A stretch of DNA of 64,000 nucleotides from Orbicella franksi (taxonomy: Eukaryota), in contig OZ116700.1 of NCBI GenBank assembly GCA_964199315.1, positions 15,748,001 to 15,812,000 on the forward strand, given 5' to 3'. This document shows positions 3,731 to 28,548 of the stretch, in pieces. The position numbers and the translations under genes are program-made. A model generated the notes under the pieces. That model did not search any database. It was not told where the DNA came from and saw only the letters and a list, made by a program, of their open reading frames with translations. Position 1 is the first letter of the stretch, and each line of letters opens with the position of its first letter.

Positions 3731-4511
3731 AGTATTCAAAATTAAAAACGGAAAAACATTGAAAAATATCATACTCTTCCTATAGTTAGGGTGTAGCCCA
3801 AACTACAGCTTAATTTGCAGCTAGCTTTTGATGTGTGGCTTATATAGACTACATACGAAAACATGCCAGGATACTTTTCTGTGAAAATTATCTGTTCTGA
3901 GGAGCGCACACAGGTTTTTGAGAGGACCAATGTGCTCTTTGAGGAACAGATGATGTCCATGGACAAATAGATGCGAATATTTTCCTGCCAAATGAAGGCT
4001 GTTGTGTTTATTGTCTATTGAATATTTTTCACAACACGCTAAGTTTTGAAAATTGGGGAACATCACCTCAGTTTTATCTGGTGTATAATCAGTCACGTGA
4101 CACATTTACACCAACTGCGTGCTAGCTAAAATATCTGATGGATTATAATGCCAGATATTAACTTGTCCTCAAGTGTGTAAGAGGGAAAAGTTGTTAATGT
4201 AAATGGTAAGGGAGGTTAAAGTCTTGTGTAGGATGGGTGTATGATTTTCTGCTTTCAAAAGACAGAGCTGTCCAAAATTGTTTTGCTGTTCTCTTTTGAT
4301 ATAAATTCACCAAATATTGCCTGCTTAATGACATTTTGCAGGGCACAGAAAACAAACTGAATACAGTCAGCAGAAGTATGATTATCATTGAAAGTTTAAT
4401 GTTAGGTCTGATTCGATGAATGTGGATTGGAATAATTCTTATAAAAATCCTTATCTCCCTTAGTTGACAAAACAGAACATAGATTCTGAAAAGAAGTATT
4501 TACAAAAATTG

Positions 4512-5030
4512 GGGTGTCTACAAAACGAAGACCGAAGATCGAAGACCGAAGATCGAAGACCGAAAAACGAAGAGCTCATATAATTTTACGCCTTTAAAAC
4601 TCAAGGCAGTTATAATCATCGATAATCAGGCTTAAGTACTTTATCGGACGCTATCACACGCGAAACCGACGGGGTCTTCGTTTTGTAGTTTAGGCCGGGT
4701 CAAACTACAAAACGAAGACCCTCGCTCAAACGCTCTTTAAGACGCCAAAAGACGCGAAACCGACTGGGTCTTCGTTTTGTAGTTTAGGTTGGGTCAAACT
4801 ACAAAACGAAGACCCTTGCTCAAAAGCTCTTTAAGATGCCAAAAGACGCGAAACCGACGGGGTCTTCGTTTTGTAGTTTAGGCCGGGTCAAACTACAAAA
4901 CGAAGACCCTCGCTCAAACGCTCTTTAAGACACCAAAAGACGCGAAACCGACTGGGTCTTCGTTTTGTAGTTTAGGCCGGGTCAAACTACAAAACGAAGA
5001 CCCTCGCTCAAACGCTCTTTAAGACCCCAA
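4512..5030 (+). repeat. Left TIR: CGAAGA(C/T) micro-repeats, unique segment, then 4 x 94-bp hairpin-containing units
   Basis: CGAAACCGAC recurs at 4661, 4755, 4849, 4943 (period 94). Each unit contains GGGTCTTCGTTTTGTAGTTT-N10-AAACTACAAAACGAAGACCC. Confidence 0.95.
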
Positions 5031-5904
5031 AACTCTTTTCCAAATTTCGATCTCACACGATCAGGCGTTTTCTGTTAGGGGTGGACCATTAGATTTTTGA
5101 TGGGGGGGTTGTGCAAATCCCCAAAAAATATCGATCATATGCTTCTAGTTTAAATAAAATATCATGCACATTTAAGATGGAAAAAAATATTGAGCAGCCG
5201 TAATCAGGGCGCGGGAAAAGTGGCTTTGAGTCATCTTAGTTACCATTGGAAGGAAAAAATGCCTGGTACATGTCAGGGATATATATTTTTGATGACTCGT
5301 TTGTCGCCTCCTTATAAGGTACCTTTCAATTGCGATGCCATCAGATAAAGCTACGTTCTTTTTTGGCGAGGTAGCCTGGCTATTGGCGCGGTAATTTATT
5401 CACATCTGAAACTCGAAAAACTACTTAGCCGTTCTTTTTATCCGCTCAATTTGGACACTTAACGTCTCGTAGAAAAGGTATAGAGATGTAAAGGTGTCCA
5501 AATAATTTATTTTAAACACGAACCTTAAATCCTTTGAGTTTTGATGCCTGGAGTTCCGTTGTGTCTGTTTCCAATCACGTGTAAAGATTTGTTAAAACAC
5601 AGATTTCGAGAAAGTTCGAAGATGTGTCAGTCCAAAAAATCGGGTTTGAACTTGCGTCTTTAAACAACCCTTGCTATGAACGACTTAATTTTTTGTTTAT
5701 CTTTGGGTATTTTAAAGAAAAAATCTCTCGAGATGTATTTAAAGCTAACAAAAACTTGCTCCCCAGCGGAAATCACACCTCCATTAAAAAGTCCAATTTG
5801 AGGACTTTTCATTAGTCGATCTTTTCATTCTTCCAGTGGCGATAACAAAGAACGCTTGATCGTAGGCTGCCGCTTTTTAAAATATGACCTAGCGTTGAAC
5901 AACG

Positions 5905-7680
5905 ATGGCAAATTTTCGGAAGTTTAATCTTCCTCAACTTCTGAGAAGGGATCCTGAACCTCATAATGACGGGATACCGCGGTTTGACTGCAACAAATTG
6001 CTTCTTAAAGATCGTGTTGGCCACAGATCATTTGGCGATGTTTATACTACCGATTACCACGCGCCAGGAAAGGACACATCAGAGACGGTAATTATCAAAA
6101 AAATGTTGAATGCCCTGGATTCAGAAGAAAAGAAAATCTTCTCAAAAGTGGCTCTATTGAATGGCCTAAATCATCGCAATGTTGTTAAATTCATGTCAGT
6201 TTGCCATCAGCCGCCAGCCATAATGCTGGAGTACGTGTATTTTGACTTTAAACTCTTCGGTCCAGAGGTACGTGTTAGCGCACTCTCTGATTTCCTTTTA
6301 AAGATAAATGAGCACAACTGCGCCGGATTTCATGAAGTTGTTAATCATGCAGCTACGGAGATAATCGGTGGCCTAGCTTACCTTCACGGCAAAGGGATAG
6401 CCCACAGAGACCTAAAAACAGCGAACATTTTAGTAAGTAATCAACATTACAGCTCGTTGTCTGTGGATACAGAAGAATTCCAGCAGATTTATCAAGCAAG
6501 GCCTATTGCCTGCAAGCTCACTGATTTCAGTGAAAGTAGATCTCTCTTCATTCAAACCCAGGCAGTCCTTTCAACTAAGACCACCACCATTGATCGGGGG
6601 ACAGTGGTTTATATGGCACCAGAGCTTCTGGTGAAAGAGAACATCATACCGAGTGCGTCCATTGCCGATCTCATGCTGGCAGACATTTGGGCCCTAGGCA
6701 TGATAATTTTTTCGATGCTTAACCCCAGCCTTAAAACCCCCTACATCATGGAAGTGCGATCTGAAGGAGGTGTAAGCAGTCAAGAAAAGTTGAAAGAATT
6801 CATCGTCTCTCTTTTACAGAAACAAAAGCTTCCATTACAAGACGAAAAATACGCCATTGATCGTGCTACAGTTTGGTGCGAGTTAGAGAAAGTTTACAGG
6901 GGTTGCACTAATTTTGCCCGAAAGGAAAGATTGCCCCTGCAAGAGGCAGCCCAGATTTTAGCAAGGAGACAAGATAGATTCTCGAGGGACATGCAGGTTG
7001 TTAACCTAAGGGTTAGCCAGGCAACTGCTCTTGAAGAGTTTGATCAAAGGTTAGCCGGCAAACTCGAAGGAGATGTAGAGTCCTTACAGTCGGAGATAAT
7101 GCCAGTGAATGATGCGACGAACACGTGTGCTTTCCTCTCGATTGGTATTGCAGAAAGCATCTTATATGAATCAGAAATGGAGGAATTTTTTGAAAATTTA
7201 CCAAAAGCCGTGGAGTTGACCATTTTGTCTTTACCAGAGAGAATAAATGAGCACCGCGACCTGGGAAAAACCTACGATGCCCTAGAAGCATATGAAATTC
7301 TTAAGCAACAGCAGATTATCAAATACCTGTTGGAATTCTCCGAGAAACTGCCCTATGCAGACGGGGTATTTACTTATGAAGGAAGAGAAAACCTTTTCAC
7401 GAAACTTTGTGTTCTTGGTACTGAGCGCTTCATTGCAATTTATGCAAGTGATCCATTTGTACTGACCATTGGTTGTCATAACAGCAAACCCTTTGTCATC
7501 GACACGCATCCAGTTGCACCCCCCTTCGGAAATGGAAATGGCCTCGTTCTTAGAGGAAATGAAAACACCCCTGAGGTTTGGATGTCTATCTGTGTGTGGC
7601 TTTGGCAGAGACTTTACCATGGCGGAGTGAATCCAACCACAGCTCAATCATTAGCAGTCGTTACACTGGATGCAAAGTAA
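5905..7680 (+). CDS. Protein kinase domain fused to a C-terminal putative papain-fold (C76/herpes tegument USP-like) peptidase; transposon cargo
   Basis: 591-aa ORF. Kinase motifs GHRSFGDVY, VIIKK, HRDLKTANIL, KLTDFSE, YMAPE, DIWALG. C-terminus has TNTCAFL (Cys codon 7126-7128) and FVIDTHP (D 7501, H 7507). The stop TAA lies inside a GTAAGT donor-like motif (7677-7682). Confidence 0.85.
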   Translation: MANFRKFNLPQLLRRDPEPHNDGIPRFDCNKLLLKDRVGHRSFGDVYTTDYHAPGKDTSETVIIKKMLNALDSEEKKIFSKVALLNGLNHRNVVKFMSVCHQPPAIMLEYVYFDFKLFGPEVRVSALSDFLLKINEHNCAGFHEVVNHAATEIIGGLAYLHGKGIAHRDLKTANILVSNQHYSSLSVDTEEFQQIYQARPIACKLTDFSESRSLFIQTQAVLSTKTTTIDRGTVVYMAPELLVKENIIPSASIADLMLADIWALGMIIFSMLNPSLKTPYIMEVRSEGGVSSQEKLKEFIVSLLQKQKLPLQDEKYAIDRATVWCELEKVYRGCTNFARKERLPLQEAAQILARRQDRFSRDMQVVNLRVSQATALEEFDQRLAGKLEGDVESLQSEIMPVNDATNTCAFLSIGIAESILYESEMEEFFENLPKAVELTILSLPERINEHRDLGKTYDALEAYEILKQQQIIKYLLEFSEKLPYADGVFTYEGRENLFTKLCVLGTERFIAIYASDPFVLTIGCHNSKPFVIDTHPVAPPFGNGNGLVLRGNENTPEVWMSICVWLWQRLYHGGVNPTTAQSLAVVTLDAK

Positions 7681-8039
7681 GTGTACTCATTATTAATCTC
7701 TTGCAGAAACCCATAAGGGTTGAAATGTGTAACTCCCTATAATTCGTATTGTACAAAGCGTTTACACATTTGTTGCCATTTATAGTACCATATTTGGAGT
7801 ATCAGGAAAAAAAATTCAATTTTTTTTTTAAATTCACAGCGCGCGCTAGGCTGCGCTTAATGGCGCAATCTTGTTTAGTCTTGTTTTTGAATAAGCTTGG
7901 TTGTATAAAGTTAAATTCGGTTAAATTCTTCTGTTTCGTTGCCATTCAATAGTCTAGAAAACTTATCTTGGATACACTTAATGAGTTCTCTTTTTCGGTT
8001 AATTTACAGTGTTCAGGTGGAAATTCAAGTAACTTACCG

Positions 8040-8297
8040 CGAAACCGAAAATGTTGTTGCGTGTGAAGAACCACGAGCCGCTAGGTGAGTGGATCTACAA
8101 CAAACTTTGACAATATTAGGACGCAAATTTGTGGTATGATTCTCGCCTTATCAAGATTGCAGCGCTGAACCAGTGCTGATATGTTTGACAAAACTTTCGC
8201 TGATTTCGTCAGCTTTCAAATTTCATCCGTCTGTACTCTTATTGACAATAAAAATTAGCCAATTAGCGGGCGAGAAATCGCTCAGTAATTGTAAAAA
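8040..8297. mobile_element. Anthozoan MITE fragment inside the MULE
   Basis: Recognised motifs ccacgagcc..gagtggatctacaacaaactttgacaat and ttattgacaataaaaattagccaat..gcgagaaat..ttgtaaaa. Confidence 0.5.
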
Positions 8298-8566
8298 AAG
8301 TATTCGTGTACAAACTCTTCGTGTTTCCAAATATGGTATTTGGCAAAACTGAATATTCCAACACTGTGAGCGCACGCTACACATTTCAATCCCTTATGTG
8401 CTTTTGTCTCTTGCAAATGACGTTAACTTGTTGTGTTCGACGACAGGAGAAGGCAACCTTAATCTTGTGTAGCTAAGAAAAATCGAGATTTTGTGTGTTC
8501 TGCATTTGCCTCGCTTTCGTTTGGACGCAAATTTGCCTCGCTTTTGTTATTGGCGTGATACCTTAC

Positions 8567-8770
8567 ATGGATTTCCATCACACCACCATTGTCGACAGGG
8601 TGAGGGATTACCACAAGAGACTCCTCCTTGAGGCTTGGCTCTATAGGGGAGACTCAACGTGGTCAATTTCATAATATGGGCGTTGGTCTGACAAACTTCT
8701 AATTTATACTTCATTTGTAAAGTTTTTCTGAACCAGTTGCTGAAGAAGTGTACCCTACTGCACATAACCA
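8567..8770 (+). mobile_element. Penelope-like element 3' fragment (GIY-YIG C-terminus plus tail)
   Basis: Translates MDFHHTTIVDRVRDYHKRLLLEAW, similar to the PLE 'D...T.I.D....Y.KRL.LEAW' segment, followed by the CTGAAGAAG motif (~8740). Confidence 0.6.
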
Positions 8771-8922
8771 GGATAGAAGGGTAAGGAGTAATGCTTAAGT
8801 TTTAGAATATAAGCAGGAAGAAAAAATGTATTTAGTATAGCAACATATGATAAAGTCATTCATTGGTGTAAGGCTTCCAAGTTCTACGCTCGCCCTCCTT
8901 AACTTTTTGGCCTTCATTTCAG

Positions 8923-10572
8923 CGAAAGAACCAAAAAGGCATTGGTGACAGTTCTCGCATGAACGCAGAGCAAAGCAAAACACACGGAGAAAAGGAAAGA
9001 AATGCAGGACTACTAGACAAAGCAAAGGTACGACTCAACATCCTGAATATCTGGGTTACTGTTTAGTAGAGCAATAAATAAATGTTGATGCGAAAGACCT
9101 CCACAGTACCAAATACCAATGGAGATCTTAGTGACATTTCTTCCCTTCTTTCCAGCAAACCGAACGTCCCCGTACGGATGAAGAGAGCATAAAAAAGCAC
9201 CGTCAGAAAACTGCACGCGGAGAAAAGGTACGTTTAAACACTAAGATCGTCTTGAGTATTCATCAACTTTGACATCAGATGGTTTGCGGAATTAACTATG
9301 CACATAGTGCAATGGTCGTTGTATAGCGCCTGTAGGCTTGTTTAATCAAGTATGGCCGTAAAATTATTAAAAAACACCGTCCGCCCTACGCCCCACATGA
9401 CTTTTCATCAAAGCATTTCTTCCCTTCTTTCCAGCAAACCGAACAGCGTCCCCATACGGATGAAGAGAGCGTAAAAAAGCACCATCAGAAAACTGGACGC
9501 GGCGAAAAGGTACGTTTAAACACTAAGATCGTCTTGAGTATTCATCAACTTTGACATCAGATGGGTCGCGGAATTGACTATGCGCATAGTGCAATGTTCG
9601 TTGTATAGCGCCTGCATGCTTGTTTAATCGAGTATGGCTGTAAAATTATTAAAACATACCGTCCGCCCCACGCCCCACCCCAAAAAAAGACGAACGAAAG
9701 CCCCACATAATTGTCTCTCCCGGATATTATTTCAAGGGTTGTCATTCCTGATTATATAGCCCTTATTTTTCATTAGAATATAGAGTAAGACTTCTGATGG
9801 TCATTTATCGACGGAGTGATAAGATCATGTTGTCTCATTTTATGCTCATGAATACAAACATTTATGACACATCGATTCCCATCTATATGTACGAAGCCCA
9901 TCCTGAAATAAAAAAAAATACTCCTGAAAGAGGATAGAAGTTTATGGGTTAACCTCAGGAATGTCCTTCAGCCTTTGCGCCTGTTGTCCGTGTTTCTGTA
10001 CAGTTAAAGCTAGATATTCCCGTACTTTATTAATGTTTTCTTTTTCAGCCAAAAAAACACAATGACACTGGCGATTGTACTGATATGAATAATGGCAGTG
10101 AAACAGAGGAGGAGCAAACGTGTTCGCAAAGAAATGAGGTACAACAGTTAGCGTATTAGGAGTATTTGTTAAGTAGAACAATAGACATGAAATCTGTAAT
10201 GTAAAATACAAGAAAAACAAGGAATGAAATTTGAACGAGTATACACTGCTAGTTGATTTTACCAAGCTGTTGTCGCTTAGGAGTCATCCACACAGTTTAT
10301 CCAATAGAGAAGTTTATCCTAGTGAGCACGTAAAGGCTGATATGATTTTCGCAATGAAAATATCGATGTATTTAAGATTTGGCTTTATTTGTTGGAAAAG
10401 GTATTACTGGCCTATAGTCCTAACTTCGAACATTTTTTACTGTCTTTGCGCTTAGGAGCAATGTAACGATGAAGTGCTTGTGTGCACGGATGATGCTCCG
10501 GTGTTACCCCAAGTTTCAGGTCTCAGTGACTCTGATAGCAGTAATGATGACTTGTTGTGCATCTTATATAAG
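8923..10572 (+). CDS. Five phase-0 internal exons (8923-9027, 9156-9227, 9435-9509, 10049-10138, 10456-10572) encoding a charged linker upstream of the transposase
   Basis: Each has a polypyrimidine-AG acceptor and a GT donor, length divisible by 3 (105, 72, 75, 90, 117 nt) and no stops: RKNQKG..DKAK, QTERP..RGEK, QTEQRP..RGEK, PKKHND..QRNE, EQCNDE..ILYK. Confidence 0.7.
9134..9680 (+). repeat. ~280-bp tandem duplication of an exon plus intron
   Basis: catttcttcccttctttccagcaaaccgaac...cgccccac occurs twice (~9134-9397 and ~9414-9678). Confidence 0.9.
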
Positions 10573-10642
10573 GTAGGCGAAATTCAATCGGGATCTTTTT
10601 TGTATTTAATATACTACAATTTCGTTATTTCGAAAGTGTTAT

Positions 10643-11115
10643 CCCTCGGACGTATAAGCAATTTCCCACCACTACGGCGGTAGGGGATGGTGGTGGGGGG
10701 AAATGATGTACCGCAGTTTCATTCTATTATTGAACAGCTTACTCTACAAGAGGACATCATTTGTGGTGGATGTGACGTCATATATACCTAGGTTCCCCCC
10801 CCCAACCCACTTAGATATGCAATCTTAGATTTGCACTGTTTTCTAAGAAAGTCTGGAAATGACGGACATCGAAAAATGCCAGAAGACTTGTGCAAGGTGG
10901 AATTATGTTGTTTTTTCCCTTGACATGCTGCTAATTATCAAGTCACGGGAACGTCAAACATCGCGGACACATAGCTGACATAATTTCCGCAAGGGATTAA
11001 TTAGCAGCTGCTCAATGTTTTGCATTCATTAAGCGAAATTCCTTATTCAAAACTACTGAAAACTACCTCGAGAAGGGTGGCATCCACCAGCCCCCCTCCA
11101 TTGTGCATCCGGAGG
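10643..11115. mobile_element. piggyBac-like MITE in the last intron, flanked by TTAT on both sides
   Basis: TTAT|CCCTCGGACG ... CATCCGGAGG|TTAT; imperfect short TIRs of a known anthozoan MITE type that normally sits in TTAA. Confidence 0.5.
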
Positions 11116-11506
11116 TTATGTCGGGGATTAAAAGATGTATCTCCTAGGCAGAGCTCTTATCAAATTGACATAGTGAATATATGGAAGACATGAACAGAAC
11201 TGCGGATTAAGAAATAAATGAATGAAGTGAACCTCATTCATTTCGTCGAACCTGTTAGGAAAAACTGCAAGTGTATGCAAGCAGACACTCACGTGGAGAG
11301 GATTTTTGAAACCTTGAAAACTAATTAATAAGGACGTTTTTCTTATTTTTATGTTAGTAAAAACATAAGCCGGGTTCTGCAAGAATTACCTTTAAACAGA
11401 TACAATTTTGACTTTATACTGCACAGTAAAAACAGGACGTATTTTGTAAATCACTTTCCGGCAGTAACTTTGTTTGACTATGTATTGTCCTTCTATACAT
11501 TTGCAG

Positions 11507-13922
11507 ACAAAGGAATGTTGGAATGGTGACGAAAGGATACCGTTGTTTGAGAAGGGATGACCTGAGAGATACACAGTCGATCAAGCCTTAGAAATCATCA
11601 GCGAACACAGCCTCACATGCGCAAAATGCACCTGTCAACCTTTGAAGGTGAGAGAAAATGCTTCGTTCCTGATCAATTTGAAATGGTTTGACAACTGGGA
11701 AGACATAAAAGCCGATATGAATGGTGTATACGACGGCGTCCTAGATGTGCAGTGTGGACAATAGAATGGTATGATGGTATGTGGTCATTACTGCATAAGA
11801 AGAAAGCCCCGCTATCTTCCATGGAAAACTATCATTTAGTTCAGAATTCCAGGAGGAACAAAGCTGCGCCATCTCTTGCGCGTTCAATATTTATATTGAA
11901 AGACATGAAAGGAAACATCGTTAACAATGTTTGTCTTTTACAATACCATGTTGACAACGCTGAAGGACGAGTTGATGATGTAGAGGTGCAGAAGCATGGT
12001 AACAGCCGATCCTCAAACCCAAGGCTGTTCTATCCACTTAAGAAGAGCATGCTTGGGTCAATTAAAGATAACGTGAAGAAGAAAGGATCGCAAGGAGTTT
12101 ACAGCGACCTGAGGAAAAAGGCTGGTGGAGTTTTCGGTGCTTCTGTGTCGGAGCTGCCTCGCGCGAAACAGCAAATTTACAACGCAAAGTCCAGGATGAG
12201 CAGTACTGTCACACAGGATGACGTTGAAGATCTTTTGAAGTATGCCCAAGACAAGGAAGACCTGATTCTGCACCACGCCGACTATCCCGAAGATCTATGG
12301 GTTCTAGGAACTTCCAGCATGTGTTCCGATCTGTCCAAGTACACCACATCAGGCATACTTTCCTACCCATTCTGTGTTGACCCAACATTCAAAATGGGGC
12401 AGTTTGAAGTTACTCCCATTGTGTACAAAAATCAACTCTTGAAGTCTAAGAGGACGAATGAAAGCCCTGTTTTTTTAGGTCCCACAATGATTCATCATAA
12501 GAAGACCTATGCCGCCTACAGGACTCTTGCATCGACGTGTGCAGCAAAATGCAAGGAGATAACAAAGGCAAAAGGTTTTATTACCGACGGAGAAGAGAAT
12601 CTCTATAAAGCCTTTGAACATGAAATGAAAAATGCAAGGAGCCTACGTTGTTTTAAACACTTTGAGACCAACTGCACGGAGAAGCTAAGAACAACGGGAA
12701 TTCGCAAAACAAAGGAACAACGATTCTTCCTGCAATGGGTTTTTGGCGTTCATGGGAAAGAGGAAGGCATACTCGATGCTGATAATCAAGAAGACTTGCG
12801 CCAATGTTTGGACTTGGCAAAGATGGAAATAGAGAGACGAGAGCGGGAGGTTCTGAAGAGGGAGGATGAGGCGTATAAACCGAAGTTTTGGTCCTTTCTC
12901 GACGAGCATTTTGAAATGATGGGTTCTCACATGGTCGTGAATGTCCGAAAGGAAGCTGGAATGGTAGTAGAAGATGACAGCAAACCTGCTCGCTGTTATT
13001 CCAACAATTCAGAATCAATGAATAACGTCATGAGGTCTGCCAAGGAAACGTTCCTCAAAGAAAATCCCTGTATTTCACAGCTGAACAAGATTCAGTTTAC
13101 ACAAAATGTTTTTGAGGTTGTCCATGCACACCAGATGGAAGAGCTTCACTCTGCAATCGCTGGGCTCAGTGATGAATATATACCACCCCAGTGCCATCCA
13201 GCGAAAAGCAAGTATGCAAACTGGTGGAGTTCTGCAATTTGAAGTTGCAAGTGCCGGATCTGAAAACGGAACACTGCAGGTTTCAGTTTACAGTGATCAT
13301 GCGACATGTGTGTAAACGGTACAAGCACGACAACATCTGCAAGCATTCCCTGGCAGTAGCTGCATTGAAGTCAATTCTAGCCGCCCACCTTGATTTCATC
13401 CGAAAGAAATCAAAGAAGGTTTGTAGTAGAATGGCTCTTGCCGAACACAACGTCCGAAAAGAGACAGCCGGGAAGAAGGGAGGCAAGAACAAATATCCCT
13501 ATCGACCAGCACGGGGCAAGCCAACTACAAGCACGAGCGTATCAACAGAAGTAGCTGACACCCCTTTGTACTCTGAGATTTACCACAACGAAAATTCATT
13601 TGTGTTGATGTTCCTGTCGGAGGATGCAAAAAGGTGTAAATCCTGTCATCTAGACTTCTGGCACAAAAAGAAGACAATTCCCTTCGACGTCATCTTCTCC
13701 CACAAAGAACGATGGATGTATCCCATCAATGGAGATTGGGCAAATTGTAGGCCATCCAACCGTGAGACCGTCAGGTACTACCACGCCGCAAAGAAGTGCC
13801 TAATGGGCCGGTTTCCCTACTTCTCCGAAGAGTACATCCACATTCCTGGGGACATCAAGGACAGTCTTCGTGAGTCTCACAAAACATACCTCACGAGCGA
13901 GTTTGAGCTAAACTTTGATTAA
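11507..13922 (+). pseudogene. MULE transposase terminal exon (DDE core, SWIM Zn finger, C-terminal CxxC..HxxxxC), disrupted
   Basis: Acceptor ttctatacatttgcag at 11506, phase 0. Stop TGA at 11558-11560; frameshifts at ~11740 and ~13190. Motifs VDPTF (D 12379), FITDGE (D 12586), CFKH, NNSESMN (E 13012), SWIM-like VCKRYKHDNICKHSLAVA. Confidence 0.88.
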
Positions 13923-14007
13923 ATCTTTCCTCGATATGTGAACACTTACGAGCAAGCCTTGCAGTCGCCCCATTCCGGTGTCAGCATGTTTTATACAATG
14001 TTCGATT

Positions 14008-14278
14008 AAATGCGCGGGCTGTGACTGGTCAGTTTGAGTTCATTATTAAAGAAATAAAAAACGTATCCGAATGCATTGTTGAGTTATATAAGCACGTGGT
14101 GATTTTTAAGAACACAAGAGAAGTGCTAGAAGCACTTGGCTGCGCCTCGTGCTTCTCTATGCACTTCTGTCGTGTTCTAAAAATCACCACGTGCTTAAAT
14201 AACTCAATAATGCATTCGGATACATTTTTTATTTCTTTAATAATGAACTCGAACTGACCAGTCACAGCCTGCGCATTT
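14008..14278. mobile_element. ~271-bp near-perfect palindromic MITE
   Basis: aaatgcgcgggctgtgactggtcag... / ...ctgaccagtcacagcctgcgcattt. Mirror ORFs 14021+ and 14029- begin with identical peptides. Centre ~14143. Confidence 0.85.
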
Positions 14279-15022
14279 TATAAAACATGATGAAAACGCA
14301 CCATTTGTATTTGTATTAGAGAAAATTTACTACAATTTATCTCGATTGGCTGGCTTTCAGTGTACGCATTGTCATAGAAACTGAATTAAGCACAAACAAT
14401 GGTTTATGGCGGAAGAACAGGGTCTTAAGTAATCTAAGTTGGCAGAAGAACAGACAGACGCCGAGATTTCTAAAACAGTTTTCTCGACTGTAAGCACTTT
14501 TGGATCAGGATCCTCAAAATTGGCAACTTTCTCGAAATTATTAACTTAAAATGAGGGCGGGACATTTGTTTGTTGTCTTTTTGTGTCTGTTAGTTGGTTG
14601 CCAAAAGTGTCTTCAAAAATGTAACTCGGTAGATCGCGTTTTAACCACTGGATGAATTGTTTCTTGCGTGAGTTGTTGAATGATACGCGCTGTAGATCGG
14701 GAGTTAAAAAGTAAAATGAAACTGTAAAGCACACATTTTATCATAATATTTCCCCGGGAGGAAATTAAGTTAGTTGATCATCAGACATCTTAGGAGGTTC
14801 TCGTTGAAAGTTAAAAAATAGATATTGTTAAAACATAAAAAGTACACACAGTATATTATAATGAAATTTTTAAGACGCATTTTCGGAATATCGCAAAATC
14901 TACAGTCCGCTGCAATGCGGCAGCAAAAAGAAAATAATCTCGAGGTTCTCGTGGCTCATGTTCATATTTCAAAGTCTTGCATAAGTCAACATGTCAAAAC
15001 TTTTTTAACCGAGTAGTAAAAT

Positions 15023-15540
15023 TAAATTTAACATCTCATACCAAACATTTTACACGTCAAGTTTTCGAGCCTTTTGAAAACGCTAGAATTAGAATGTGGG
15101 AAAGTTGCATTTAAATGTTCACATTTTGGTGGATTATTGTATAAACGACAGCATTATAGACGCCGTTGTTACGGCAATCATTTTGTTACTATCGTAGAAT
15201 ACCGTAACTATGGAATTATATTTTATCATGAGTTCGTTTCAGTTAGCATTATAAGATGTACGTTTGTAATCATAAAGGTAGTAAATTTAAATTGAACATC
15301 TCATACCAATATTTTATACTCACGGTTTCAAGACTTTTGAAGACGCTGGAATTAGAATGTGGGAAACTTGCATTAAAATGTTCACATTTTGATTGATTAT
15401 TGTATGAACAAAACTATAAAAGACGCCGTTGTTACGGCAATCAATTTGTTACTATCGCAGAATACTGTAACTATGGAATTATATTTTATCCCGAGTTCGT
15501 TTCCGTTAGCATTATACGATGTACGTTGTAAATCTTAAAG
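15023..15540 (+). repeat. ~265-bp diverged tandem duplication, non-coding
   Basis: aacatctcatacca...gacgccgttgttacggcaatc...gatgtacgtt occurs at ~15023-15277 and ~15288-15540. Confidence 0.85.
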
Positions 15541-16082
15541 CATTAACTCACTCGAAAATATCAGATCAAAGCTTAACGACAAGCCGGATTGTAGTCTGGA
15601 TATTCACTGGCGCTGAATATTGACCTAGACAAGTTTGTATTTTTGGCACCCGAAGAATTTGTTGTTCCCCACAGGATGCCATTTTCTGTAGCATTACTTT
15701 CGTTTAATCCACATTGTCTGCTCAACATAAATATATACATGTATACGCGTTTCTCATGTCAGTTTCCCTTTGCTATTCCAGCAGCACAGCTCTTGGCTAC
15801 CTATACTATTTTTCGGTCTAGTCTTCGAGCTTTGATCTGACAACCTTTATGGAAAAAAAATTCTTGGCCATGCCCTACTTGGAAGGATACGCCTGTATAT
15901 CAGGACAAGGAAAGGGAATGACATTCGGGTTTCAAATACAATGCATATCGACTATACTTGGATTGAATTGTTGTAAAAATTATTTTTGATACTGTTATTC
16001 AACTGAAAAAAGGCAATAGGGAATCGGAGTATAAGAATAAAATAATCGTTAATTTCATTATTCGTCATGCTTTCTTCAAGGA

Positions 16083-16769
16083 AACTGTTTGAGCGAGGGT
16101 CTTCATTTTGTAGTTTGACCCGGCCTAAACTACAAAACGAAGACCCAGTCGGTTTCGCGTCTTTTGGCGTCTTAAAGAGCGTTTGAGCGTGGGTCTTCGT
16201 TTTGTAGTTTGACCCGGCCTAAACTACAAAACGAAGACCCAGTCGGTTTCGCGTCTTTTGGCATCTAACAAAGCGTTTGAGCAAGGGTCTTCGTTTTGTA
16301 GTTTGACCCGGCCTAAACTACAAAACAAAGACCCCGTCGGTTTCGCGTCTTTTGGCGTCCAACAAAGCGTTTGAGCGAGGGTCTTCGTTTTGTAGTTTGA
16401 CCCGGCCTAAACTACAAAACAAAGACCCCGTCGGTTTCGCGTCTTTTGGCGTCCAACAAAGCGTTTGAGCGAGGGTCTTCGTTTTGTAGTTTGACCCGGC
16501 CTAAACTACAAAACGAAGACCCTGTCGGTTTCGCGTCTTTTGGCGTCCAACAAAGCGTTTGAGCGAGGGTCTTCGTTTTGTAGTTTGACCCGGCCTAAAC
16601 TACAACACGAAGACCTAGTCGGTTTTGCGTGTGATAGTGTCCGATAAAGTACTTAAGCCTGATTATCAATGATTATAACTGCCTTGAGTTTGAAAGGCCT
16701 AAAATTATATGAGCTCTTCGTTTTTCGGTCTTCGGTCTTCGATCTTCGATCTTCGTTTTGTATACACCC
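16083..16769 (-). repeat. Right TIR: 6 x 94-bp hairpin units, unique segment, micro-repeats
   Basis: GAGC(G/A)..GGGTC recurs at 16091, 16185, 16279, 16373, 16467, 16561. The outer ~150 bp is the reverse complement of 4512-4660. Confidence 0.95.
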
Positions 16770-17153
16770 CAAAAATTGATAAGTGAATAATGGATGGAGA
16801 GTTATTTTTCTTGGTAAGCATAGACAAAAGATAAAACATAAAGGTAACTTAGACTAGTAGATTTATACTAAACCAATTAGATTATTTGCTCTTGATTTCT
16901 ATGTGTGATAGTTGACGAGGGCACAGCACGCAATAGAAATCTCTAGCTCATAGTCTAATTGCTTAAAGTAGTTGGTAGACCTTAGCCTTTTGTCCAGGAG
17001 AAAAGGGTCTGGTTGTCAAAATAAGGTTCGGATAACAAGATGTTTGTACATGTCAGTTGCAAAAAGAATGAAATCAAGCAAAACTCGCTATTCTAAGACC
17101 CATCCTGTCCATTTTAATATCTTTTAGTGTTGAACAGTCGGATTTCCTCTTGT

Positions 17154-23623: not shown

Positions 23624-23730
23624 CGGAGGAACATGCGCGGGGCTAGCGTGAGGACGCACACTTTGTGAGGGAGCAATATCGTCCCCAAAGAATAGAGTAA
23701 ATCGCTGGTTACTTCTATAAAAACTACTAT

Positions 23731-24665
23731 ATGCAGGATAAAGGCAAGACCAAAGGAAAACACAAGAGAGGAGAACGTGGCTCTGTCGAAGAAGACCAAC
23801 AAGGATCCAAACGTGCGAAAATCGCGGATGCCGAGCTTCAAATAACGTCTAAGGTTAACAATGACGAAGGGCTGTCTGGCGCCAACGAGCAAGAAACCGC
23901 ATCAAAGGGTAGTGCCGAGGAGACTAATCTTTTAGAACTAAAGGAAATGTTGGTTGATATTCAGATTACGGTCTCCAATATTCTCCGTGAAAACTCAAAA
24001 CTCGCCAACGAGGTCGCTGAGCTACAGAACGCCTTCTTGCAACAGAAAGGTGAGCTTACCAACGTTAAAACCGCCTTAGCCAAGTGTCAGAAACAACAAG
24101 ACGATTTGGAAATTCAGCTAGCCGCAGCGGGAAAAAAAACAACAACCAAGAAGCGGAAATCGCAGAATTATACGATCTCCAAGACGCACTGGAACAATAT
24201 ACTAGAAAAAACTCACTCGAAATCCACGGAGTCCCAGAATCCGCGTACACCTCAACTGAGGAGGTTGTCCTTAAGCTCGCCAAGGCTTTAGACGTGGATA
24301 TAAATCCAAACGACATCGAAATATCACACAAGCTCCACCTGAAAGGTGTAAAACCAATTATTGTAAGGTTTCAAAGCCATAAAGCGAAAACAAGAATGTA
24401 CAAGGGGAGAGCCAAGTTGAAACATGTCCACGTCTCTGACCTATATCCCGACTCAACAGCGGCAACTAGAGCAGAATCAGGACGAATCTACCTAAACGAG
24501 AACCTAACATCCTACAGGCGGGATATCCTTAAACAGGCGAACCAAAAGCAAAAGGATGGTTTGTTGACATCCGTGTGGTCAATGGACGGGAAAATATTTG
24601 TCAAAACCTCCCCGGAGGGAAGCCCGATCAGAATCTATGAAAAAACTGACCTGGAGAATCTCTAA
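23731..24665 (+). pseudogene. Tx1/L1 ORF1 (coiled coil + RRM + CTD), one frameshift
   Basis: Overlapping ORFs 23731..24291 and 24084..24665; EQYTRKNSLEIHGVPE, PIIVRF, IYLNENLT, WSMDGKIFVK. Confidence 0.85.
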
Positions 24666-24830
24666 GGTAACCACAGTAGTATGATGTACTCTTAGACTTG
24701 TAGGTGGGGACAGGAACCAGGTGTCCGAGAGGCCAGAAGGAAAACTCTTAAATAAGTTTTTGTTTACTATTTTTTCTTTTCGTGTTCGCTTTATTTCTTT
24801 ATTAATTTACCATAATTTTCAGTTTTCTGC

Positions 24831-27800
24831 ATGTCTAACAAGCTAACTTATGACATTACATCGTTAAACGTAAGAGGATTAAGAGAACAAAGTAAAAGGA
24901 GGAGTATTTTTTCGTACCTTAAAGATCAAAAATCGAAACTCTATTTTCTACAAGAAACATATTCAGAGGTGAACGATGAAAGTATTTGGAGAAATGAATG
25001 AGGAGGTAAAATATTCTTTTCCCATGGCACCAAACACAGCAAAGGTGTTTGCATTCTGATCCATGCCTCGGTGCAAGACAAAATCAAGTATTCTTTCAGC
25101 GACAAGTTCAGAAGAATTGTGTTAATTACTATTGTTATCAACTCTTTAATGCTATCGCTCTGCAATATTTACGCCCCAAACAATCAAGGTGAACAACTAG
25201 AATTTTTGCAAGAACTAAATAATTGTCTTATAGACAAATCAGAACTGACTACACTGATCGTAGGTGGCGACTGGAATTGCACTTTATTAAAGAATGATAA
25301 AATTGGTGGCAAGCCCTGGAAAGCAACCAATTATAGAAATTTAGTCCTGACTACTATGGAGATACTGGATCTCGTGGACATTCAAAGAGAACGACATCCA
25401 AAATTGCGCAAGTATTCTTACGAATCTAAGGTTTTAAAAGAAAAATCCAGGATAGACTTTTTTTGGTGGCCCAAAACTTGACACAATTCGTCAAAAAGAG
25501 TGAAATCTATCCTGCTATAGCGCCTGATCATAAAGCAATTTACATATCATTGTTTTGTCTAATGAAACACCTAGAGAACACGGACTCTGGAAATTTAATA
25601 ATTCTCTGTTGAATAATGAAGATTATGTCAACAAAATACGTAAAACATATTTTCAAACTTGCTCTTATTACTCCAAGTTAACCGACAAACGGCTTTTTTG
25701 GGAGATGCTCGAAATGGAAATTAGGGCAGCAACCATCTCTTTCAGCAAAAATTTAGCAAAATCAACAAATTGCAGGGAAATGGAAATAACACGTCGACTT
25801 CAGGTGTTAGATGAGTTCATTTGTAATAATTTTCTTTCCCCTGACATTGATCAGGTCTTAAACGAATTTGAGGATCTCAAAACAGAACTTCAAACAATAT
25901 ACACCAAGAAGGGAAAGGCAGCAATCTTTAGATCAAAGTGTAGATGGGTGAAAAAAGGTGAGCGCCCCACCAAATACTTTTTTAACTTAGAGAGAAAAAA
26001 CTACAATAAAAAGACTATATCTGAACTACGGATGGAGGATGAAACGATTATTAAAAGCAAGACCCAGGTTTTAGACGCTATTGAAAATTACTTTAATGAT
26101 TTATACACATCAGCATCTAGCGCAACACAGGAGGAATACGATAGCTTTATTCAGGAATTGCGCCTGCCTAAGCTTTCTGATGAAGAGCGAGATGAACTTG
26201 AAGGCCTTTTAACGTACGACGAATGTAAACAGGTTTTAGAAACTTTCCAAAATGAGAAGTCTCCAGGTGAGGATGGTTTTACGGTAGAATTTTATAAGTT
26301 TTTTTTCGAACTGCTTGGACATAATCTCGTCGAAAGCTTCAATGAAGCTTATGAAACAAATGAGCTTTCCATCTCCCAAAGAAGAGGTATCATTACTCTT
26401 ATACCAAAGGAGGACGGCTCCCTGTTACATTTATCGAACTGGCGACCAATAACTTTACTTAATGTTGACTGCAAGATAGGAACTAAGGCCATAGCTAGGA
26501 GAATAGAAGCTTCGCTGCCAAAGCTAATAAACTCACACCAAACCAGGTTTATAAAAAGGCGCTATATTGGGGAAAATATCCGCCTCATAATCGACATTAT
26601 GGAATATACTAAGAGGCATAACATCCCAGGCATTCTAGTGTCTCTAGACTTCAGAAAAGCCTTTGACTCACTTGAATGGCCCTTTATAATGAGAACACTG
26701 GATGTCTTCAATTTCGATACGAGTATTCAAAAATGGGTTAGCACCTTTTACACCAACATAGAGAGTGCAGCATTAAACAATGGTTTTTTGACAAACTGGT
26801 TTCGGCCGTCTAGAGGAGTCCGTCAGGGGTGCCCACTATCCTTGTATTTGTTTATTCTTTCAGTAGAAATAATGGCCAATAAAATCCGACAAGACCTACA
26901 CGTCAAAGGAATTGAAATATTAGGAAAAGAACTGAAATTGAGCCAGTATGCAGATGATACAAATCTTTTGTGTGCTGACCTGGCCTCTGTCGAAAAGGCC
27001 TTAGAAATAATCGATAACTTTGGTACGCTAGCAGGCCTTAAATTAAACCAGAAGAAAACAAAAGCGCTCTGGTTGGGAAAATTGAAAAATAATAAGGGCA
27101 ATCCATTACAACTGAAATGGTTACATAACCCGGTTAAAATCTTAGGAATCCATGTTTCGTACGACGAAAAAGGAAATAACCAACATAATTTCAACCACAA
27201 GTTACAAAAATTGCAAACAAATCTGGACCTATGGAGGGCACGTGACCTTACACTATTTGAGAGAGTACTAATCATAAAATCTCTGGCACTATCACAACTC
27301 ATTTACTCAGCATCAAATCTCAATGTACCTCAAGAAATAATACCAATAATCAAAACAAAACTGTTTAGATTTCTATGGAAAAACAAAAAAGACAAAATAA
27401 AAAGAGAAGGGCTCTATCAAGATCGAGATAAAGGGGGTATACGTATGATCGATGTAGAAACTATGATAAAGGCACTGAGGTTAGCTTGGATTCCGAGACT
27501 TTTTGCACCGGGAAAAAAAACTGGAAACTGTTCCAGACCATTATCTAGGAAAATACAGCGGTCTGAGCTTTCTTTTAAGATGTAACTACGACACAAAATA
27601 TATCAACGGTTTGCCATCATTTTATAAAGACATTTTAAAATTTTTCAATGAATTGAAAACCTTGTATAACTATGACAGAGGACAGGATATGATCGTATTT
27701 AATAACAAAGAAATCCTCGTTGGAGGGAAGCCCATTTTCATCAGTGAATGGCTTAACAACAACATTCTTTTTATACAAGACCTGTTGAACAACAATGGCC

Positions 27801-28548
27801 AGTTTATGTCTTATCAAGAATTTAAAAACAAATTCACTTGCAAAACAAACTTTCTCCAATTTTATCAAGTTGCAAGTGCGATACCGAAGCATCTAGCCAC
27901 AAAAGCGAAAAACACATTACCACCAGAAAGCGAACCATATATCGAGAACAACCCTCTTTTCCAACTAGACGACTTGACAGAAATTAACTTAGTCAAAGCC
28001 AAAACTAGGAACTTCTATTGTTTAATTAACAAAAAAATTCACACGAGGTGTCAAACTGGCCCAACGAAATGGAATCAAACCATGCAGTTGGATGGGGAGA
28101 CATGGGAAAAAATATTTTCCTCGCTGAAAAACATTTGTAAGGAAACAAAATTAAAAGAATTTCAATTCAAACTTATTCATAGAATTGTTGTAACAAAAAA
28201 GGAACTTTTTAGATACGGAATCAAAACGGATGATGAATGCCTCTATTGCGCTGAACATGATTCAATCGACCACACATTTAATGATTGCGAATTTGTTAAG
28301 AGCTTTGTTAAAAACATCATCGACTGGTTTAATGCTGTCAATAATTCGAATTTTAGTCCAACAATAGAAGAAAAACTATTTGGCATCTGTCCGGCTCATA
28401 CGATAAAACATTATTAAAGAAATTTAATTATACGATCTTGTTTATGAGATTCTACATCTACACTTGTAAGATGCAAAACAAAGCTATTCACCTCTCCATT
28501 TTCGTTGATAAAGTGTTAACCAAATACAGAATAGAACATCTTTCTTAA
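24831..28548 (+). pseudogene. Tx1/L1 ORF2 (APE endonuclease, RT, CCHC Zn finger), several stops and frameshifts
   Basis: SLNVRGLR, LQETY, GGDWN, SRIDFF, KSPGEDG, WRPITLLN, RQGCPLS, QYADD, CLYCAEHDSIDHTFNDC. Confidence 0.92.

Follow-up and report, generated by a model that had tools for sequence, protein, structure and literature searches.

What is a protease-like domain doing behind a protein kinase in a coral transposon? The question is raised by a 64,000-nucleotide stretch of the Orbicella franksi genome (the window; contig OZ116700.1 of assembly GCA_964199315.1, forward strand), in which an ORF at 5905-7680 on the plus strand encodes 591 aa, a kinase followed by a 230-aa domain without a Pfam name. 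An earlier inspection of the letters had taken this domain for a deubiquitinase of the herpes-tegument type. Our analysis leads us to an account, held as a whole with a probability of about 0.6, in which the domain is the VTD of a kinase-VTD-transposase protein and would deubiquitinate the transposase or proteins located at its DNA sites. The features of the first exon, in window coordinates, are:

5905 to 7676, plus strand: exon 1, kinase and VTD, with a phase-2 donor and a GT-AG joint 7676|8723 in run X3
7678 to 7680, plus strand: stop to which the unspliced exon 1 ORF runs on (591 aa)
6010 to 6948, plus strand: protein kinase domain, degenerate in the window copy (Pfam Pkinase, E 3.7e-27)
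6985 to 7676, plus strand: putative VTD, a peptidase C76-like cysteine protease domain, from conservation and predicted fold
7018, 7126, 7285, 7501 and 7507, plus strand: VTD residues Gln372, Cys408, Glu461, Asp533 and His535

The motif N-T-C-A-F-L in the exon 1 ORF contains Cys408 (TGT at 7126). Further on, F-V-I-D-T-H-P places Asp533 125 residues and His535 127 residues past the cysteine. The original prediction had named both motifs, and both are present; its range of 7501-7509 is right for the D-T-H core, whereas the whole F-V-I-D-T-H-P occupies 7492-7512. Taken alone, the pair is modest evidence, as 4.3% of 20,000 shuffles of the domain yield some Cys with a D-x-H 105-145 residues further on. 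The case therefore had to rest on conservation and on the fold.

The genome (497 Mb) holds 15 matches to the domain, the window copy included, with the others at 25-55% identity. A profile built from eight genome copies retrieved 787 library representatives at E up to 0.001, and the best 150 of these were examined. Among them, the Cys is kept in 120 of the 121 stretches spanning its site and the His in 137 of 141; the Asp is kept in 126 of 141, with Glu in 13 more. The 108 stretches that span both sites comprise 92 with C/D/H, 13 with C/E/H and three with one residue lost. Gln372, upstream, is kept in all 91 stretches covering it, and it may serve the oxyanion hole. The position of Glu461 is acidic in 116 of the best 150 (100 Glu and 16 Asp). 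Because Cys and Asp-x-His are conserved across relatives, we judge the motif pair to be real; a loss of Cys or His from the family, the outcome that would have spoken against a catalytic pair, was not observed.

A structure model was built from an alignment of 84 VTD relatives and reached a pLDDT of 95.5 and a pTM of 0.92. Foldseek ranks 1-6 are all VTD structures, namely M48 (2J7Q, E 1e-5), Wc-VTD1 (8ADC and 8ADB) and DrT1-VTD2 (8ADD), with E values from 1e-5 to 3e-4. VIA-align, an independent aligner, places 8ADD best (Z 18.0, rmsd 3.0, 188 residues aligned), followed by 2J7Q (Z 15.4, rmsd 3.4, 184 aligned) and 8ADB (Z 12.9). The YopT-type protease AvrPphB (1UKF), at Z 11.8, falls below all three VTD structures and 6 Z units under the best. 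Furthermore, the top match in the ESM Atlas is a Herpes_teg_N cluster, with PF04843 in 73% of its members (score 0.95, 202 of 256 features). In the numbering of the model, Cys48 starts the helix 48-62 and Asp173 ends the strand 168-173. The domain is thus predicted to fold like DrT1-VTD2 and M48, with Cys408 at the start of a helix and Asp533-x-His535 past a strand. The predicted fold is almost certainly that of a VTD. The proposed herpes-tegument, or peptidase C76, type, which implies a papain-like fold, is borne out by the model, whose fold is closest to M48 and DrT1-VTD2.

At the sequence level the domain is remote from its published relatives, with ~10% identity to the tested VTDs in the structure alignments. 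Pfam PF04843 gives no match to the window protein; when E values as high as 1 are allowed, it matches seven of the 84 relatives in the alignment, the best (0.0077) still under the cut-off. Searches of PDB sequences with the single sequence and with an 8-sequence profile returned chance matches only, and the 84-sequence profile found 8ADB at E 0.041. PF04843 also matches 22 loci in the genome, all of them other than loci of the kinase-VTD family. Twenty of these (L036-L055) are canonical VTDs, most with Cys and D-S/A-H, and several stand at the start of long Helitron-like ORFs. Alignment to the Helitron-like VTDs of the genome by hhalign gave a probability of 50 and covered the D-x-H half alone. 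In a tree of 38 rows, a very long branch sets the kinase-VTD family apart from five Helitron-like VTDs. By predicted fold and conserved residues, the domain is a divergent member or subfamily of the published VTD (peptidase C76) family.

In the accessible text of Erven et al., DrT1-VTD2 uses C322/D451/H453, and D376/E377 bind the RxR tail of ubiquitin (PMC9741609). The same text reports a YopT relationship for VTDs as well, and notes that a D-x-H also serves UFSP2 and ATG4, which act on modifiers other than ubiquitin (PMC9741609). Glu461 lies 53 residues past Cys408, and D376/E377 lie 54 and 55 residues past their Cys; the equivalence is one of spacing only.

The kinase-VTD exon lies within a transposon with the following parts:

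4503 to 4511, no strand: left 9-bp TSD, the same 9 bases as at 16770-16778
4512 to 16769, plus strand: whole Mutator-like (MULE) DNA transposon, 12,258 bp, delimited by TIRs, TSD and an empty site in related corals
4512 to 5032, plus strand: left long TIR with 94-bp subterminal repeats
11507 to 13922, plus strand: MULE transposase exon (D 12379, D 12586, CxxH 12649-12660, E 13012)
16256 to 16769, minus strand: right long TIR, its 94-bp repeats starting near 15988
16770 to 16778, no strand: right 9-bp TSD

The TIRs measure ~520 bp, and their arms are 92% complementary at 4533-5032/16256-16755 and 91% at 4509-4564/16717-16772. The empty-site joint 4502->16770 is found, with 9 ambiguous letters, in three of the four runs compared. 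These runs also hold a near-identical element and show 1-2% divergence from the window, in the flanks as well; they may come from a sister species and not from the same population. The RNA runs that match the genome are labelled coral metagenome. In addition to its DDE residues, the transposase exon encodes SWIM-type and C-terminal zinc motifs, and both Asp, the CxxH and the Glu align across the eight transposases compared. Pfam MULE (PF10551) reaches E 0.034 in the window and E 1.3e-4 in the best relative (22.8 bits against a cut-off of 27.6). CxxH is found in hAT, P, Kolobok and Dada as well, according to the accessible text of PMC9587614. With its 9-bp TSD, long TIRs and DDE plus CxxH, the element belongs to the Mutator/MULE superfamily; a Helitron or Helentron identity was ruled out by the DDE transposase, the TIRs and the 9-bp TSD.

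The window copy is decayed. Its transposase exon is broken by a stop at 11558, by frameshifts and by a 278-nt loss at 13181, and its kinase motifs have eroded; the VTD triad is intact despite this decay. Compared with P0003 the window copy is 96% identical, with 14 residues differing. Among the A>G and T>C differences listed, 28 of 33 lie in CpG context, against ~22% expected, an excess that suggests methylation-driven decay.

Other repeats were noted along the way. Six or more further TIR pairs are present in the genome, spaced 0.5-7 kb apart and with 91-97% identity to those of the element (on C7, C5, C9, C6, C10 and C2; L063-L073); they are probable non-autonomous derivatives. A 111-bp inverted repeat (93%) occupies window positions 13998-14288, just past the transposase stop. 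Elsewhere in the window, we take the ORFs within 23700-28400, 49900-53000 and 61600-63350 to be mobile-element remnants, comprising a LINE (ORF1, endonuclease, RT), a DIRS-like set of RT/RNase H and recombinase, and a further DDE transposase.

Is the exon 1 ORF a gene of its own within this element? Its last codon and stop (7678-7680) overlap a GTAAGT splice donor, so the main product probably continues beyond the VTD. The C6, C10 and C7 copies likewise have a phase-2 GT donor where the VTD ends (four copies with the window). Contigs from four RNA runs provided seven GT-AG joints, with run X1 examined separately, and define the following exons:

8723 to 8780, plus strand: linker exon 2, phase 2 to 0 (joints 7676|8723 in 1/4 runs, 8780|8923 in 4/4)
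8923 to 9027, plus strand: linker exon 3 (joint 9027|9435 in 4/4 runs)
9156 to 9227, plus strand: optional duplicated linker exon in a tandem 282-bp repeat (joint 9227|9435 in 3/4 runs; putative acceptor)
9435 to 9509, plus strand: linker exon 4 (joint 9509|10049 in 2/4 runs and in X1)
10049 to 10138, plus strand: linker exon 5 (joint 10138|10456 in 3/4 runs)
10456 to 10572, plus strand: linker exon 6 (joint 10572|11507 in 3/4 runs)

The reading frame is kept over six introns from the ATG to the transposase exon, with 739 codons before the latter, and the spliced chain totals ~1,600 residues. The message was pieced together joint by joint from contigs that each cover a part of it. The first joint, 7676|8723, occurs in one of eight runs (X3), with 30 letters on its short side, and contigs of X1, X2, X4 and X14 read through the donor into intron 1, as would be seen with a short isoform, with pre-mRNA or with DNA. 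Runs X6 and X10 look like DNA, with flat depth and no splice joints. X23, a run of poly-A reads of which 12% was analysed, has zero cover inside the element, which fits silence or absence of the element. Splice signals had also pointed to an exon near 8011-8085, which was discarded; no joint uses it and X3 skips it. Two repeats lie in this region: the 282-bp tandem duplication at 9135-9678, which copies one linker exon and of which both forms are spliced, and a short high-copy repeat at 8190-8300 in intron 1, marked by depth spikes and many loose contig ends.

Exon 1 is likely the front of one spliced kinase-VTD-transposase gene. Since GT-AG joints keep the frame and single-ORF relatives carry all three domains, we hold with considerable confidence that the fusion is a real product. 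The original prediction had described a C-terminal domain of a cargo kinase. The domain does end the unspliced ORF, but with the stop inside the donor it is probably internal in the main product. Similarly, the kinase-VTD fusion and its transposon setting stand, while the term 'cargo' is probably wrong for a module in frame with the transposase.

Single ORFs elsewhere hold kinase, VTD and MULE transposase in one chain: three such ORFs, called by ENA, are P0121 (contig of 47 kb), P0092 (3.0 Mb) and P0177 (6.7 kb). When 16 long relatives were compared, 10 matched exon 1 as well as the transposase region (one of them weakly), and Pfam recognizes a kinase in seven of the 10. The relatives include gene models from two jellyfish, Sanderia (P0082) and Rhopilema (P0144), and from the sea anemone Actinostola (P0192); P0152 and P0131 carry transposase-like parts. 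The fusion is shown in the long relatives that match both regions; among the best 150 of the 787, most of which are short pieces, 53 match the kinase, eight the C6 transposase and four RecQ. From these comparisons, the design appears to be common to corals, jellyfish and sea anemones. In the same genome, the C6 copy shares this layout, is bounded by TIRs and a 9-bp TSD of its own, and looks naturally intact.

A second type of element combines kinase, VTD, RecQ helicase and MULE-like transposase in one frame of 2,030 codons on C12 (L020/L021), with further loci on C5 (L018/L019) and C2 (L022/L023). The C5 copy lies between TIRs of ~1.5 kb built of tandem repeats, and a search for its TSD found none. 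The RecQ-bearing VTDs form one clade (96/90) in the 38-row tree, and P0191 and P0195 match the transposase part of this type at 44-45%. An assignment of these relatives to 'Academ' was dropped, as their downstream domain is MULE-like (Atlas 0.95; Pfam MULE E 0.02). A profile of transposases from the window clade does not detect the transposase domain of the RecQ type. Within the window's own type, the modules differ in their degree of divergence. Compared with the window, the C10 copy (L024/L025), whose second TIR was not in the stretch examined, is 78% identical in the transposase, 40% in the kinase and 31% in the VTD; the C6 copy is 52%, 62% and 53% identical, respectively. The pattern suggests that the kinase-VTD module has been exchanged between elements.

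The kinase of the window copy has Arg41 at the second Gly position of the Gly-loop, lacks the alphaC Glu and reads DFS in place of DFG. These motifs are intact in relatives and in the allele of runs X1, X6 and X10. Across 44 proteins with a kinase before the VTD, many of them close coral relatives, the Lys, HRD-Asp, Asn and DFG-Asp have been lost in none, and every protein but the window copy retains the alphaC Glu and the DFG Gly (43 of 44). The Gly-loop positions are kept in 34-35 of 37-38 kinases. Judged by these motifs, the kinase is catalytically complete in relatives and degenerate in the window copy. Its nearest solved kinase is RIPK1, at E 5e-14 and only ~5-7 bits above CDK2; a search for the subtype gave no PDB match at 1e-15. 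One protein of the family, P0032 from Acropora cervicornis, is named 'Cyclin-dependent kinase A-2' at source.

Taken together, these features suggest how the protein might work. As a member of its family, the VTD would cleave isopeptide bonds of ubiquitin and perhaps of NEDD8, and we consider it probable that one of these two is the substrate. Glu461 would be the likely partner of the RLRGG tail of ubiquitin. The VTD would act in cis, so that the transposase escapes proteasomal turnover or ubiquitin marks are cleared at its own breaks; we favor action in cis because attachment to the transposase gives the protease the best position for it. The fusion of the kinase-VTD module to the transposase makes transposase protection the more natural reading, and we lean, without strong conviction, toward the transposase or its DNA site as the main target. 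The kinase, in turn, may phosphorylate the polyprotein or a host factor. Protection from the proteasome has been proposed for Helitron VTDs by Erven et al. in the accessible text (PMC9741609). A separate observation concerns the genome at C15:2.38-2.50 Mb, which contains a large cluster of divergent tandem ubiquitin-like domains.

The same domains could serve other ends. If intron 1 were mostly retained, the main product would be a stand-alone kinase-VTD of 591 aa working in trans, with host signalling (ubiquitin, stress or immune) or silencing factors as its targets and the fusion as a minor form. The unspliced ORF does stop cleanly right past the domain, and the contigs of four RNA runs that read through the donor agree with such a product; these contigs may, however, be DNA or pre-mRNA, and the stop lies within a donor that is conserved in the four copies checked. 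An immune role would suit the match to RIPK1, a ubiquitin-regulated immune kinase, and the action of herpes VTDs on NF-kB and interferon signalling described in the accessible text of PMC9741609, but the narrow lead of RIPK1 over CDK2 weakens the first of these points. Single-ORF relatives fuse the module to the transposase, where intron retention is impossible, and we regard a mainly stand-alone product as unlikely. Passive capture of host DNA in the manner of Pack-MULEs, with no role in transposition, has in its favor the decay of the window copy and the known capture of gene fragments by MULEs (PMC6431247, accessible text). It is largely refuted by conservation, as both enzymes retain their catalytic residues in proteins that are 25-35% identical overall. 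Corals, two jellyfish and a sea anemone all carry the module in frame with a transposase, and it recurs in the second, RecQ-bearing MULE type. We give this origin very little credence.

A VTD-fold protease might also have a target other than ubiquitin, either cutting the polyprotein to free the transposase or removing NEDD8, UFM1, ATG8 or SUMO. The distance of the subfamily from tested VTDs, in both identity and branch length, leaves room for this, as do the YopT-type non-DUB proteases that are its next fold neighbors and the long acidic linker that follows the domain. Against it, VTD structures outrank the YopT types, the best by 6 Z units, an acidic residue is conserved at the spacing of ubiquitin-tail binding, and all VTDs characterized in the accessible text of PMC9741609 cleave ubiquitin. 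A Gly-Gly site common to the linkers was not found: it is absent from eight of nine relatives' linkers and from the linker exons of the window, which fits a lack of self-cleavage there. Since eight of nine linkers have no such site, self-processing appears less likely, and a non-ubiquitin target as a whole seems rather improbable to us.

Deubiquitination at the transposase or its DNA site, our preferred reading, has its closest parallel in the zebrafish Helentron VTD, DrT1-VTD2 (8ADD), which shares the Cys and Asp-x-His at similar spacing and is likewise in frame with a transposition protein (accessible text of PMC9741609). Unlike that domain, the coral VTD is carried by a MULE, which moves by cut and paste and has TIRs and a 9-bp TSD, rather than by a rolling-circle element, is preceded by a protein kinase, is missed by PF04843 and falls in a clade separate from the Helitron-like VTDs of its genome. 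The large tegument deubiquitinases of herpesviruses (M48, UL36, BPLF1; peptidase C76, PF04843) are alike in fold and in the order Cys...Asp-x-His, but the coral domain is 8-10% identical to them, is not viral and has no tegument protein context. With Mutator/MULE transposons the element shares the DDE with CxxH, the 9-bp TSD, the long TIRs and the SWIM finger; in it, a kinase and a VTD precede the transposase. Plant MULEs bearing Ulp1 are known.

The VTD family has already been published with transposon members, and the Discussion of the same report describes VTD domains of corals and sea anemones fused to various regions, including transposon-associated domains (PMC9741609). A Cnidaria group is labelled in its Supplementary Fig. 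2, and the coral kinase-VTD family may be part of this group. In their accessible form, the main text contains no occurrence of 'kinase', 'MULE' or 'Mutator', and three supplementary PDFs contain none of 'kinase', 'MULE' or 'transposase'. The accessible text of PMC5751038 names OTU, helicase and C48 among the accessory domains of DNA transposons, and that of PMC9587614 places RecQ in KolobokH. The accessible main texts of two MULE surveys (PMC6446971, PMC13359780) mention no kinase, protease, Ulp1 or helicase, and 'kinase' does not occur in the accessible texts of these two or of PMC6431247, PMC9587614 and PMC5751038. A search of the literature outside subscription journals and Repbase found no kinase-VTD-MULE fusion and no kinase-bearing eukaryotic transposase.

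VTD deubiquitinases have been described in herpesviruses and in rolling-circle transposons; these findings would add cut-and-paste Mutator elements to their carriers and join the VTD to a conserved kinase inside a transposase. Coral genes annotated as ordinary kinases, such as P0032, would be explained as parts of transposons. Put more broadly, and tentatively at slightly below even odds, there may be a cnidarian-wide Mutator lineage in which an exchangeable N-terminal module of active kinase and active deubiquitinase, present on at least two distant MULE types (one with RecQ), rewrites phosphorylation and ubiquitin marks on the element's own protein or on host repair or silencing factors so that the element jumps. 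That unrelated transposons have recruited deubiquitinases more than once suggests that transposases are held in check by their hosts via ubiquitin, an idea that the intact-looking C6 relative makes testable.
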